Shown in pieces: positions 36,859 through 43,051 of a DNA stretch of 64,000 bases. A program made the position numbers and the translations under genes. The DNA is from Eledone cirrhosa. Its lineage: Eukaryota. Each line of letters opens with the position of its first letter. The first letter of the stretch is position 1. Below the pieces are notes generated by a model. It did no database searches. It was given only the letters and a program-made list of their open reading frames with translations, and was not told where the DNA came from. Where the stretch lies: positions 11,346,001 to 11,410,000 of the forward strand of contig OZ024749.1 of the NCBI GenBank assembly GCA_964016885.1, in the 5' to 3' direction.

Positions 36859-37532
36859 GAGGAAGGGCGAATATATATATATCATCATCATCATCATCAT
36901 CATTTTACGTCTGCTTTTCCCTGCTTGCAAGGGTGGGACAATATATATGTATATATATATATATATGTATATATATTTATATATTTATATATATATTTAT
37001 ATATATATATATATGTATATATATATATGTATATATATATATATATATATACATATATAAATATATATATATATATATATATATATATGTGTGTAAAAGT
37101 TCTATTTAAATTGTTGGGATACAACAAGCAAATATTTTTATAACTGATATAAAGCACTCAACAAATAATTGGAGTAAAAATACGATATTAACAAATGGAA
37201 ACTATATTTATCAAACCATATTTATTTCATTATACATATTTCAAGGACACCAAGTTAAATTATGGTGTGCTTTCATCAAATAAAATATAATATAGAGCAG
37301 TTTTATAAATAAATATTGCCATACCCTTAAAGAATGTAACCATTACTGTTGGAAGCTCCCATGTATGTATATATATATATATATATATATATATATCATC
37401 ATCATCATCATCATCCTCATCATTTTACGTCCGCTTTTTCCTGCTTGCAAGGGTGGGACAATATATATGTATATATATATGTAAGCAAGCGTGGAAGATG
37501 GACGTTAAACGATGATGATGATATATGTATAT

Positions 37533-37862
37533 ATGGCTTAGTGGTTAGAGCATTGGCCTTGCAATCGAAAGGTTGTGATCAGACCGGGTGATGTGTTGTT
37601 TCCTTGAGCAAGACACTTTATTTCACATTGCTCCAGTTTACTCAGCTGTAGAAATGAGATGATAGGGACTGGGGTCCCTATCATTCCACTGCAAAGTGGT
37701 TGTGGAGGTGCCATGACAAAAAGCACCCAGCACTCACTGTAAATGAGGTTGGTGTTAGGAAGGGCATCCAGCTGTAGAAATCAAGCCAGAATCAGTTCCC
37801 GTCCCACCCTTGCAAGCAGGGAAAAAGCGGACGTAAAATGAAATGATGATGATGATGATGAT
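37533..37862 (+). mobile_element. CORE-type SINE
   Basis: Near-identical to 598-927, with the B-box region deleted. Confidence 0.88.
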
Positions 37863-37979
37863 ATATATATATATATATATATGTAAGCGCGGAAGATGGA
37901 CGTTAAACGATGATGAAGATGATGATATATCTATATATGTATATATATAGTTATGTAATAAACAACATAAGGCAATTAT

Positions 37980-38037
37980 TCCATTTACCAGTGGTTTCTT
38001 AAAAGCAAAAAATTTTGCTTTCAATCATCAGAATGAA
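37980..38037 (-). ncRNA. Type I hammerhead ribozyme, family A, GUA site
   Basis: TTCATT-CTGATGA-12-bp helix II-GAAA-CCACTGG-TA-AATGGA. Confidence 0.85.
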
Positions 38038-39201
38038 AAAATCCTAGTCTGTTTATTGAATTTAGATTTTAAAAACAAAAATGCAATCTATATGAAAGTG
38101 AGGCTGGAGAAAGAAGAAGGAAAGGAAAAATAAAATAAAAACACACATGCAAACACACACACACACACACACACACACACACAAAAGCATACACACACAC
38201 ACACACACATATATATATATATACATACACTCATACATACACACACACATATACACATATATATGTGTATATAAATACACACATACACATACATATACAC
38301 ATACATACATACGCACATAAATATCAACACATCCATACATACACATACATATATACAACCACACACACATATATATATAGAAATAGAAATATATATATAT
38401 ATATATATATATATATATATATATATATGCATACACATACACATACATAGCCATAGACACATACATATACATACATACATACATGCACACAATCATACCT
38501 ATATACACACGTACATACATACACATACATAAATGCATACATATGCATGTACAAATATAGAAAAATACACACACCTTTACATATTCACACACGCAAATAA
38601 ATATAAGAAAATATATATATATAAAAAATAAAATAATAAAGACTATTATACAGTTGACAGCAATACAAGTGACGAATAAATGAACAAACACGCGTTGTAA
38701 GCAATACACACAAATGCACGAAAAAGTAAATACATACACACACTCTCACACGTAAATATACATATACAAATACATAAACACATACATACGCATACACAAA
38801 TACATACACAAACACACACACACACACACACATATACATATATACACACACACATACATACACACACATATATATATATACATATATATATATATAAATA
38901 CACACACACACATACACACATATACATATATATATGCATACACACACACATACATACATAGCTATACAATTATACACATACAAATACGTACATATCACAA
39001 ACACGCACAACCAAATACAAACACACACACACATATATATATATATATATATATATATATATATATATATATATATATATATATATGTGTGTGTGTGTGT
39101 GTGTAAAAATCAATCTTAGATAATTCAAATGAACCTTATATAACTCCAAAATATACATATACATATATATAGTAATGTAATAAACAACATAAGGCAATTA
39201 T

Positions 39202-39259
39202 TCCATTCACCAGTGGTTTCTTAAAAGCAAAAAATTTTGCCTTCAATCATCAGAATGAA
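39202..39259 (-). ncRNA. Hammerhead family A copy with a GUG (non-NUH) site
   Basis: Same fold, but the cleavage base is G. Confidence 0.75.
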
Positions 39260-39520
39260 AAAAACCTGGTCTATCTACATATATATATATATATATACAC
39301 ACATATATAAATATATATATATATATACATACACATACATACACATACATTTTGGTATGTGATGGGTAAGGCAAAAAGAATATATGGGGGGGGGGGGTGA
39401 AGAAGACATGGGAAAAGGTGAAATATAAGGGGAGATAAGGGAGAAAAAGAATACAAGAGTACAGAACGTGGATTCAGCAAATAAAAAAACCGTAGTAGAA
39501 GTAAAAAGCAGGGAAGGAGT

Positions 39521-40020
39521 TCAGGGCGGTTGATTTATCATAGGAGTGTCAATCCAGTTACAGATCAGATGTGATTTCAGATGAGGACAACATCTGCAGA
39601 TCTCGGTCTTTGAGTTTAGGCAAGCAGAAGTGGCTCTCATGTTTAGCAAAATCCTATATTTTTCTGTGGTACACAAAGAACAATTCTTTGTGCCCCTTTG
39701 GTACTCCCTCAAATGGTCTAAGGTAGACCAATCGATAGAGTACGGGATGTTACTATCCTTGAATTCCCACACCTTACTTTCGAGGGCCGTTGATGTTCGT
39801 TTATCGGAGTGCTTAAAAGAAGCGACATGTGAGTAAAATCTGGTTTTAAACCTGTCCTGGGTCATGCCGACATATCGCTCACTCCTGGCTGACTGGTTGT
39901 TGATTAACGGTGTTATTTTAGCCTCATAAACAACAGATTTGGTTTTACATTTACCCTGCAATGGGCATTCATCCGGCTTCCTGCAACTGCATCCTGGATT
40001 TGTTCTCGTATGCTTTGAAC
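39521..40020 (-). mobile_element. PLE GIY-YIG endonuclease and ORF C-terminus (5'-truncated)
   Basis: CSCRKPDECPLQGKC, VVYEA...YVGMT...FKTRF..H, IDW, CSLCTTEK, LNSKTE....CPH. Confidence 0.85.
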
Positions 40021-40379: not shown

Positions 40380-41191
40380 ATAATTGCCTTATGTTGTTTA
40401 TTACATTACTATATATATGTATATGTTTATAAAAACAAACGCACATGACCGCACAGATAAACAATGGACCATGCCACGTGGCTTGAACCCATAAGTGAAT
40501 TGAAGGTTCTGAAACTCTGATACACATATTGTTTATTATTTATTATTAAGATGTATAAACCGGACACAACTGTTATCATCCTATATTCTCTCAACGAATC
40601 ACACTTGATCATATTTCTCTATCCTGTTTTCTCCCCCCATAATTATTATATTTTTATTATTTTTTTATTATTGTTTGAAAAAAATCGTTTTTTTTTTACA
40701 TTGGGTTTCCCCTCCAAATATTCGCTTATATTTCCTTATATATTCTCTATATATTTTTTATCTTTATTATTATTTCCACTTTTATCCTCCTTTATATTTT
40801 ACCTTATTCTTACCTTTATACCTTATTATAGTGTAATCTTCCCCATGCCTTATTATACACTATTAATTATAGATTATTATTATTACTCTTTTTCCATTTC
40901 TAATTACCTCATGTACCTTCTCCTCCGCTATATGTATATATGTATTCTACGCCCTTTGTGTTTGTGTAGCCTCTGCGCACCCTCTGCACCATACTATCCA
41001 CGCCACCCCATCTATGGTTCAGCTAACCACCCGACCCCCGATGACCGCAGCTAGTAAACAAGGACCAACACCCCACCCTCCCGCACCAAAATTAGACTTA
41101 TCGTCCCCTTCTTTTGCTCTTTACTCTCTTTACTCTTTGTTCTTTGGTGTTTGGTTGGTAGAGTCCATAACACCAATCAAACCCCTTTTAT

Positions 41192-41239
41192 AGCTCTGAT
41201 GAATCCTACGGTTACACGTAAGGAAGAAACATTGTTAGC
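41192..41239 (+). ncRNA. Type I hammerhead, family C
   Basis: GCT-CTGATGA-A-TCCTACG..CGTAAGGA-A-GAAA-C-ATT-G-TT-AGC, followed by AATAAA. Confidence 0.65.
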
Positions 41240-42189
41240 CAATAAAAATCTTTTGATGTTGTAGACGCTCTTGTGTTCTTTTTCATATATATATATATGT
41301 GTGTGTGTGTGTGTGTTTGTATTTGGTTGTGCGTGTTTGTGATATGTACGTATTTGTATGTGTATAATTGTATAGCTATGTATGTATGTGTGTGTGTATG
41401 TATATATATATGTATATGTATGTATGTGTGTGTGTATATATATATATATATATATATATATATATATATATATATATATATGTGTGTGTGTATGTATGTG
41501 TGTGTGTATATATGTACATGTGTGTGTGTGTGTTTGTGTATGTATCTGTGTATGCGTATGTATGTGTTTATGTATTTGTATATGTATATTTACGTGTGAG
41601 AGTGTGTGTATGTATTTACTTTTTCGTACGTATGTGTACGTGCATTTGTGTGTATTGCTTACAACGCGTGTTTGTTCATTTATTCGTCACTTGTATTGCT
41701 GTCAACTGTATATATATTTTTTCTTATATTTATTTGCGTGTGTGAATATGTAGAGGTGTGTGTATATTTTTCTATATTTGTACATGCATATGTATGCATT
41801 TATGTATGCGTATGTATGTACGTGTGTATATAGGTATGATTGTGTGCATGTATGTATGTATGTATATGTATGTGTGTATAGCTATGTATGTGTATGTGTA
41901 TGCATATATATATATATATATATATATATATATATACGATATTAACAAATGGAAACTATATTTATAAAACCATATCTATTTTATTATATTATTATACATA
42001 TTTCAAGGATACCATGTTAAATTATGGTATGCCTTCATCAGGATATTGGATTGGAAGACATCAGGATATTGGATTTGTTTATCTTAGTCTAAGATAAACA
42101 AATCCAATATCCTGATGTCTTCCAAAAGTAACGGTTGCATTTTGAAAGGGTATGTTAAAATTTATTTATAAAACTGGTATATATTGTAT

Positions 42190-42248
42190 TTTGTCTGATG
42201 AAAGCATACCATAATTTAACATGGTATCCTTGAAATATGTATAATAAT
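42190..42248 (+). ncRNA. Type I hammerhead, family B
   Basis: TTGT-CTGATGA-AAG.ATACCAT..ATGGTAT.CTT-GAAA-TATGTA-TA-ATAA; minus-strand copies at ~41988-42041 and ~37228-37284 (the latter with TTGATGA). Confidence 0.65.
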
Positions 42249-42681
42249 ATAATAAAATAGATATGGTTTTATAAATATAGTTTCCATTTGTTAATATCGT
42301 ATATTTACTCCAATTATTTCTCGAGTGCTTTATATCAGTTATAAAAGTGTTTGCTTGTTGTATCCCAACAATTTAAATAGAACTTTTGCATATATATATA
42401 TATATATATATATATATATATGTGTATATATGTGTGTGTGGTTGTATATATGTATGTGTATGTATGGATGTGTTGATATTTATGTGCATATGTATGTGTG
42501 TGTATTTATATACACATATATATGTGTATATGTGTGTGTATGTATGAGTGTATGTGTATATATATATATATATATATATATATATGTGTGTGTGTGTGTG
42601 TGTGTGTGTGTGTGTGTGTGTGTGTGTGTGTGTGTGTGTGTGTGTGTGTGTGTGTGTGTATGCTTTTCAGACCAGGATTTT

Positions 42682-42739
42682 TTCATTCTGATGATTGAAA
42701 GCAAAATTTTTTGCTTTTAAGAAACCATTGGTAAATGGA
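42682..42739 (+). ncRNA. Type I hammerhead ribozyme, family A, GUA site
   Basis: TTCATT-CTGATGA-TTGAAAGCAAAA..TTTTGCTTTTAA-GAAA-CCATTGG-TA-AATGGA. Confidence 0.85.
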
Positions 42740-42977
42740 ATAATTGCCTTATGTTGTTTATTACACAACTATTAAGCTCTGTTACCTACATAGAGCACTC
42801 TTTTTTCCTGGACTTTTCCGACGGAATTACTTCATTTATGTATATATATATATATATATATATATATATATATTCACATTGCTGCAGTTTCCTCAGCTGT
42901 AGAAATGAGATGCAAAGTGGACGTATATATATATCAAAATGAATATCCGAAGGCAAGGTAAAATTCCAATCATTTAA

Positions 42978-43051
42978 TCACGACACATGTTTCAATAAGA
43001 GATAGATCGATTGTGAAGCCATGATCGATTATCACTGATCTCATCAGGTGA
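42978..43051 (-). ncRNA. Type I hammerhead, family D, GUC site
   Basis: TCAC-CTGATGA-long bulged helix II-GAAA-CATGTG-TC-GTGA. Confidence 0.7.

Follow-up and report, generated by a model that had tools for sequence, protein, structure and literature searches.

Fold-back of two truncated Hydra-clade Penelope-like element copies in the Eledone cirrhosa genome, probably joined later by hammerhead-bearing ends of other families

We analysed a 64,000-nucleotide window of the Eledone cirrhosa genome (3.0 Gb), positions 11,346,001–11,410,000 of contig OZ024749.1 (C9), in which nine hammerhead ribozyme cores cluster within 37090–43051 (window coordinates throughout). The locus is, with high probability, a head-to-head pair of 5′-truncated copies of one Hydra-clade Penelope-like element (PLE), here called family A, with three other families, F, B and G, represented by hammerhead-bearing ends that likely inserted later into or beside the pair; these ends would have piled up here because all favour TA repeats. 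Self-BLAST and direct alignment of the arms define an inverted pair centred on 40031 and spanning 37935–42837 (4.9 kb), so the inverted arms of the roughly 6-kb fold-back proposed by a first-pass annotation are real but its size is not. The PLE endonuclease (EN) placed by that annotation at the fold-back centre, between inverted arms of the pseudo-long-terminal-repeat (pLTR) type, is borne out by self-BLAST, which recovers inverse copies of modules E/A′ (39151–39553 versus 40032–40430), D (38396–39052 versus 41285–41936) and A (37947–38051 versus 42668–42772). An endonuclease fragment (39524–40030, minus strand) is enclosed by these arms, whose parts are as follows.

39521–40030, minus: 3′ end of the family-A Hydra-type PLE open reading frame (ORF), with CxCX5C linker and GIY-YIG-type endonuclease, found as an ORF; 5′-truncated at the fold-back centre, stop at 39523–39521; reverse transcriptase (RT) continues upstream in other copies.
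37935–39520, minus: left arm, a complete family-A 3′ untranslated region (UTR), E-A′-W-D-C-X-A, terminating at the short end in (TA)n; 15 of 20 longer stretches share this order.
39151–39277, minus: left A′, internal hammerhead copy; core 39253, triplet GUG (not NUH).
37935–38050, minus: left A, terminal type I hammerhead; core 38031, GUA at 37988–37986; the minimum-free-energy fold is the hammerhead fold.
40032–42837, plus: right arm, an inverted 5′-truncated family-A copy, E-A′-[F]-D-[B pair]-C-A-Y, ending at the long (Y tail) end in (TA)n.
40304–40430, plus: right A′, internal hammerhead copy; core 40328, triplet GUG.
40431–41284, plus: F, the 5′-truncated 3′ end of another Hydra-like family (the second at the locus), nested where W would otherwise stand; core 41196, GUU ending at 41236; 99% identical to other copies.
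41929–42390, both orientations: B pair, nested within the (TA)n that separates D from C; a partial B in inverted orientation (core 42041, minus) that has lost the 5′ strand of helix I, a hairpin junction at 42051–42125 and a full B end (core 42195, plus, AUA ending at 42243).
42669–42837, plus: right A with Y tail, terminal hammerhead; core 42688, GUA ending at 42733; in tandem copies Y leads into the 5′ UTR and ORF start.

In the sense of the element, the order is EN-E-A′-W-D-C-X-A on the left arm, which descends from 40030 to 37935, and E-A′-[F]-D-[B inverted, hairpin, B]-C-A-Y on the right arm, which ascends from 40032 to 42837. W and X are missing from the right arm, to which F and the B pair are confined. 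The arms differ at 23 of 1,048 aligned positions (2.2%), evenly from block to block (0.8–2.9%). An earlier claim of mirror order holds for E/A′, D and A, which are inverted, but not for W, X, F and the B pair, which differ between arms; B is not mirrored because the left B lies outside the fold-back and belongs to a different subfamily (87.5% identical to the right B, 97% to the copy at L236). G likewise lies outside, and a short interspersed element (SINE)-like repeat separates the left B from the left arm. Low-complexity repeats at the locus might suggest an assembly artefact, and the four sequencing runs compared, contigs or RAD reads 95–99% alike, contain nothing that spans the stretch; the arms, however, are set apart by these 23 substitutions, several indels, two arm-specific inserts and distinct, family-typical ends, and we regard an artefact as scarcely credible.

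The family to which the endonuclease fragment belongs is abundant, with 1,940 first-look candidates genome-wide. Other copies extend upstream into RT with varying truncation points, and show RT, linker and endonuclease in one frame, the endonuclease C-terminal (478 amino acids open in L007; L031 read with stops). RWK and DKT motifs occur in the N-terminal part of both translations, and the CxCX5C linker, CxxC and CxH all fall within the window fragment. All five are Hydra-clade features in section 11 of Craig et al. 2021 (PMC8557442), and the family-A protein follows Hydra-1_Obim, by eye, in the supplementary alignment available with that paper. Pfam gave no RT or GIY-YIG match for the window endonuclease fragment or the L007 ORF; 1,768 homologues at E ≤ 1e-20 carry PF26215 or PF28514, and their own names are uninformative. 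Judged by these motifs and the by-eye alignment, family A is a Hydra-clade PLE. A Naiad-clade assignment was rejected on the C-terminal position of its endonuclease.

What follows the endonuclease is also a family property. The standard order E-A′-W-D-C-X-A, traced from A′ to X-A, recurs in 15 of the 20 longer stretches, and A′ follows E at 28 of 29 other family-A loci, in keeping with the earlier claim that a kilobase-long 3′ region is tied to the endonuclease. L031, L047 and L048 also have X-A-Y immediately before the ORF, the start codon following the GUA site by ~220 nucleotides (nt); A is therefore the unit boundary, and E to A is the family's own 1.6-kb 3′ UTR, in an element of about 4 kb. 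Copies end either shortly after A or ~70 nt further on, after Y, and always in (TA)n (30 of 30 X-A loci examined). Both arm ends in the window adjoin (TA)n, one arm using the short end and the other the Y-tail end. L176 holds three X-A units in direct tandem, ~360–400 nt apart, as a small retrozyme-like array of the family end, and at L048 (4240–5725) a different PLE with a GIY-YIG frame is nested as an inverted pair in a family-A UTR.

An inverted partner occurs at the 5′ truncation in 8 of 29 other family-A loci, and an inverted 5′-truncated copy with a one-sided tail has been described for PLEs (PMC8557442). We propose that both arms would have been reverse-transcribed in one event from the two start sites of the family on (TA)n (twin priming) and linked through their truncated 5′ ends. 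The enzyme of B, followed by that of F, may later have inserted its own element end into (TA)n tracts on the right arm; W and X would have been lost from this arm locally. The inversion might instead have been made at the DNA level after a single insertion, by fold-back repair or inverted duplication, which the TA-rich, hairpin-prone sequence would permit and which finds some encouragement at L085, a fold-back discussed below whose arm identity peaks near its centre. A DNA duplication would, however, copy one end and its flank, whereas the arms end at two different family termini and have no flank sequence in common beyond them; divergence is even along the arms (as given above), and inverted 5′ partners are found at the 8 other loci. 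The different arm ends appear to contradict a DNA-level inversion, which is thus largely refuted and in our view very improbable.

F, B and G are, as read from sequence, the 3′ ends of three other Hydra-like families with RT-EN of their own. Each DNA search scored only the best 40 of 1,100–2,600 candidates; genome-wide, candidates numbered 1,375 for F, 2,354 for B and 1,393 for G, and the ends of all three lie in (TA)n. RT-EN frames, 29–45% identical to family A, sit beside F, B or G ends in twelve longer stretches, and in the examples measured the parent RT-EN lies 2.2 kb (F), 1.5 kb (B) or 1.5 kb (G) upstream of the core. At L192, L199 and L201, families F, B and G have microsatellite-containing 3′ UTRs of 1.5–2.2 kb. 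F had also been considered as a non-autonomous element with a fixed 5′ end, and this was rejected, the apparent 5′ end being the edge of the query. The features flanking the fold-back are as follows.

37090–37362, minus: left B, a separate B-subfamily end outside the fold-back; core with U at C3.
37533–37860, plus: SINE-like dispersed repeat between left B and left arm; 93% identical to window 596–929 and to other window copies, with a weak tRNA-like Rfam match at 597–654.
42931–43120, minus: G, lying beyond the fold-back, the 3′ end of the fourth Hydra-like family; core 43047, GUC at 42984–42982; 98–99% identical to other copies.

The first-pass annotation had suggested that the stretch may be a multi-ribozyme mobile unit that gathered heterologous ribozyme pLTRs and travelled with them, so that the right arm would have been copied from a composite RNA already holding F and B. 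Among the scored candidates, the window arrangement is repeated at none of 29 other F loci, none of 29 other B rows (28 places) and none of 24 other G loci, and family-A modules are absent at those 24 G loci. The F–D junction is absent from all nine of the best other matches inspected, in each of which F runs into plain microsatellite, and the X-less C–A junction occurs once in the genome, at this locus. A composite donor would hold the closest copies of B and F, yet the closest copies elsewhere have unrelated flanks; nor does the left arm carry the F and B inserts, and no second locus with these junctions was found among the scored candidates. With 99% identity to other F copies, against 2.2% divergence between the arms, F is likely younger than the arms, and B makes an inverted pair of its own in 18 of 29 rows. 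A parallel is seen at L195 (C3:121.84 Mb), where a sister-family fold-back has a long F nested in one arm. In favour of a composite RNA, the three NUH-ending cores of the right arm (F, B and A) share one orientation, and accretion has been seen for ribozyme-less tails and possibly for an intact B at L085. We consider a composite origin improbable and predict that the stretch does not move as a unit; as for the genome-wide recurrence of modules, the order E-A′-W-D-C-X-A does recur beside the endonuclease, but among the scored candidates the junctions of F, B and G with family A do not.

Nesting extends beyond this locus. Internal inserts of at least 190 bp occur in 6 of 19 complete family-A UTR spans, three of them with cores; one misparsed span was left out of this count, and some known cases, L042 among them, escaped the span finder. 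No junctions are shared among the 15 inserts compared. At L044, a different B subfamily occupies the same (TA)n between D and C, and one tract has therefore been hit repeatedly and independently. Some foreign pieces have become fixed: a 132-nt B-like tail (~78% over 76 nt) without a hammerhead stands at one UTR position in 16 of 30 sister-family rows (L204–L233, about 650–1,250 nt after the endonuclease end; absent from L206), and the unlinked L264, L271 and L279 share a 48-nt foreign tail right after A′, as well as a longer UTR segment between A′ and W that is probably ancestral. At L085/L086 (C12:31,086,600–31,089,250), both arms of a fold-back bear an intact B hammerhead inside sister-type D′-C-X-A ends.

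Some considerations tell against our account of the locus. Scoring only the best 40 candidates means that rare composite copies could be missed. Ribozyme-less foreign tails fixed in UTRs mean that accretion does occur and that foreign pieces could be carried; the earlier proposal of 3′ gathering by read-through holds to this extent, in that UTRs accrete ribozyme-less tails that travel with the element, but finds no support for F, B and G at this locus. Finally, L085, the strongest single candidate, would fit one co-mobilisation of a foreign hammerhead, at a single locus; arm conversion also fits, because the inner 0.5 kb is identical between arms (outer parts about 96%). When the genome was searched for the junction of L085 and for the B insert of L233, the scored candidates included only the source loci themselves.

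All nine cores of the four ribozyme families first noticed here are present: A-type at 38031 (−), 39253 (−), 40328 (+) and 42688 (+), B-type at 37279 (−), 42041 (−) and 42195 (+), F at 41196 (+) and G at 43047 (−). A strict type I descriptor devised for the present analysis passed seven of the nine, none in 300 dinucleotide shuffles and one site in the other 58 kb of the window. The Rfam scan suggested in the first-pass annotation matched no hammerhead family in the window at E ≤ 1, returning only microsatellite-driven microRNA matches. A functional hammerhead requires an NUH cleavage triplet and C3. Four cores look crippled: both A′ (GUG), left B (U at C3, a position also named in PMC11167929) and the inverted B, which lacks its helix I partner (5′ strand) because it is truncated. 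The CUGANGA...GAAA...NUH signature once ascribed to every core is not carried intact by all; core and NUH are kept together in the other five, namely left and right A (GUA), F (GUU), right B (AUA) and G (GUC).

Constrained folds form helix I only in the A types, left B and G, and not in F or right B. The terminal hammerhead of family A is predicted to have a helix I of 7 bp, II of 11 bp and III of 3 bp with GUA, a triplet found in 64 of 64 terminal contexts of the family (copies deduplicated by flanking context, 10 edge rows left out). Minimal PLE hammerheads cleave poorly alone and better as dimers (PMC4209133; PMC7229834). Helix III strands of A and A′ pair at about −10 kcal/mol, compared with −1.8 to +0.4 among A, F and B, a further point against a composite RNA; a cofold of A′/A with the cores held open gave another pairing, not a double hammerhead. 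A right-arm transcript could in principle be cut at 41236, 42243 and 42733, and carries no sign of being a selected or repeated unit. Most cores of the stretch are predicted to cleave weakly or not at all. Elsewhere in the window (9765–9816), two more CUGANGA..GAAA cores on opposite strands form an inverted pair, apparently the end of another family, and a similar end is present in L063, L098 and L264.

The only ribozyme pair that appears to travel with the family is the homologous A′/A, whose inner copy is GUG at this locus. A′ is absent after E in 30 sister-family loci; sister families are 84–87% identical in the endonuclease, and L208 shows a single terminal A ~1.35 kb downstream. A′ begins ~20 nt before the core, stops at the short end and is flanked on either side by (TA)n, which gives it the shape of a short self-insertion. 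In a tree from which rows with fewer than 400 aligned nt were left out, A′-bearing copies form one clade against 8 sister copies (support 100/100). The exact A′-type stem pattern occurs genome-wide with GUG in 94 cases and GUA in 35 (controls, 0), and of 20 GUA loci retrieved, 12 prove to be internal copies beyond which the UTR continues; these counts led us to reject the notion that only a dead hammerhead can be carried at an internal position. Five copies (L273, L274, L275, L277 and L281) have GUA at both hammerheads, 1,066–1,290 nt apart, with both cores intact in three, whereas GUG is found in 25 of 27 true internal copies in the local sample (2 of 29 rows, of another family, excluded). 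The GUG subfamily, which includes this locus, is more numerous than the GUA/GUA subfamily.

A′ would have arisen once, by short self-insertion into a UTR microsatellite with an intact GUA site; retrotransposition would then have carried it along, and in what is now the more numerous lineage the site would have become GUG. GUA is placed before GUG because A′ is a copy of the terminal A. This order is weak and counts against that history: the inner branches on which it rests, uniting GUG copies with one probable A′/A recombinant, L004 (91/87), and six GUA copies (80/59), are themselves weak, and approximately unbiased tests reject neither grouping. In the GUA/GUA subfamily, excision of an RNA of about 1.1–1.3 kb is predicted to be possible. 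We advance tentatively, and as unlikely, a broader scenario in which family A was once an autonomous PLE with a built-in retrozyme cassette: its two intact hammerheads, 1.07–1.29 kb apart in the 3′ UTR, would form a double hammerhead that cuts out a circularisable RNA, which would capture non-LTR retrozymes in the act of budding from PLEs. The inner GUG would then have protected the template and let the lineage expand, and (TA)n-targeting Hydra families would, more widely, lengthen their UTRs by mutual insertion and fixed remnants.

Other element types surround the locus. Just left of the fold-back region, RT, RNase H and integrase fragments of LTR-retrotransposon type (34035–36881, minus) stop at 36881, cut by a SINE-like piece and (TA)n. 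To the right lie two long frames of an APE-RT non-LTR element (45931–48345, plus), and long minisatellite arrays occupy 2450–4770 (29 bp × 80) and 17106–20212 (28 bp × 111).

Among known systems, family A is closest to the Hydra clade of endonuclease-bearing PLEs, such as Hydra-1_Obim (PMC8557442), with which it shares a C-terminal endonuclease, the five motifs above and (TA)n targets. The ACCA-N-UGGU helix III of its 3′ type I hammerhead is that of Hydra-1_Obim, and inverted 5′-truncated partners are common to both. The Hydra entries in that source measure 1.1–3.0 kb, each row showing a single sense-strand hammerhead close to the 3′ end; family A, by contrast, reaches ~4 kb, of which a microsatellite-rich UTR makes up 1.6 kb, and has two hammerheads in direct repeat, and the 1.5–2.2-kb UTRs of families F, B and G are also longer than those entries allow. 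Poseidon PAc of the green anole (Frangieh et al. 2024, PMC11167929) resembles family A in its AT-rich targets and in two reverse-transcription starts downstream of the hammerhead, which yield short and tailed ends. It belongs to a different clade, however, with a tail of 30–40 nt versus ~70 nt in family A, and its hammerhead overlaps the start codon rather than preceding it by ~220 nt.

Non-LTR retrozymes (Cervera and de la Pena 2020, PMC7229834; bioRxiv 10.64898/2026.07.22.740005), for which a PLE origin has been proposed, have direct-repeat type I hammerheads that may act as a dimer, a layout shared by the GUA/GUA subfamily. Retrozymes are, however, non-coding tandem repeats of 150–450 bp, whereas family A has a single, non-tandem A′-to-A interval of 1.07–1.29 kb inside a coding element. 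No retrozyme-type array of 150–450-bp repeats with complete hammerheads was found in 37090–43051, where the spacing of homologous cores is 1.2 kb and 2.4 kb and the inner core reads GUG. Terminons (reviewed in PMC6431247) are likewise PLE relatives with several hammerheads and secondary insertions; they have an RT ORF without endonuclease, telomere attachment through reverse-complement telomeric repeats after the hammerhead, and accessory ORFs. Family A, in contrast, has its endonuclease fused to RT and ends in (TA)n, and the locus lies 11 Mb inside the 57-Mb contig C9. The retrozyme- or Terminon-like unit envisaged at first finds no support on either side, given the lack of a tandem array at the locus and the fused endonuclease, (TA)n ends and internal position. 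The main text of a 2026 Octopus vulgaris repeat annotation (PMC13282606) does not contain the word 'hammerhead', and in the literature outside subscription journals and Repbase we found no paper describing Hydra PLEs that nest in one another or carry a hammerhead duplicated in the UTR.

The locus brings together known element types in a nested pile that known PLE behaviour accounts for, and it serves as a warning that in TA-rich genomes clusters of hammerheads can arise from shared target preference alone. Family A represents a variant of the Hydra-type PLE: its long UTR is accreting, and its hammerhead is duplicated and occurs in two states. What is unusual is this additional internal hammerhead, a copy of the family's own, which sister families seemingly lack. 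The function of PLE hammerheads has been called unclear (PMC8557442), cleavage was found unnecessary in vitro (PMC11167929), and the PLE origin of animal retrozymes has been argued from phylogeny. This genome holds three natural states together, one hammerhead (sister families), two GUA, and GUG with GUA; with these, dimer cleavage, the formation of circles and the cost that an active ribozyme imposes at an internal position can be tested directly.

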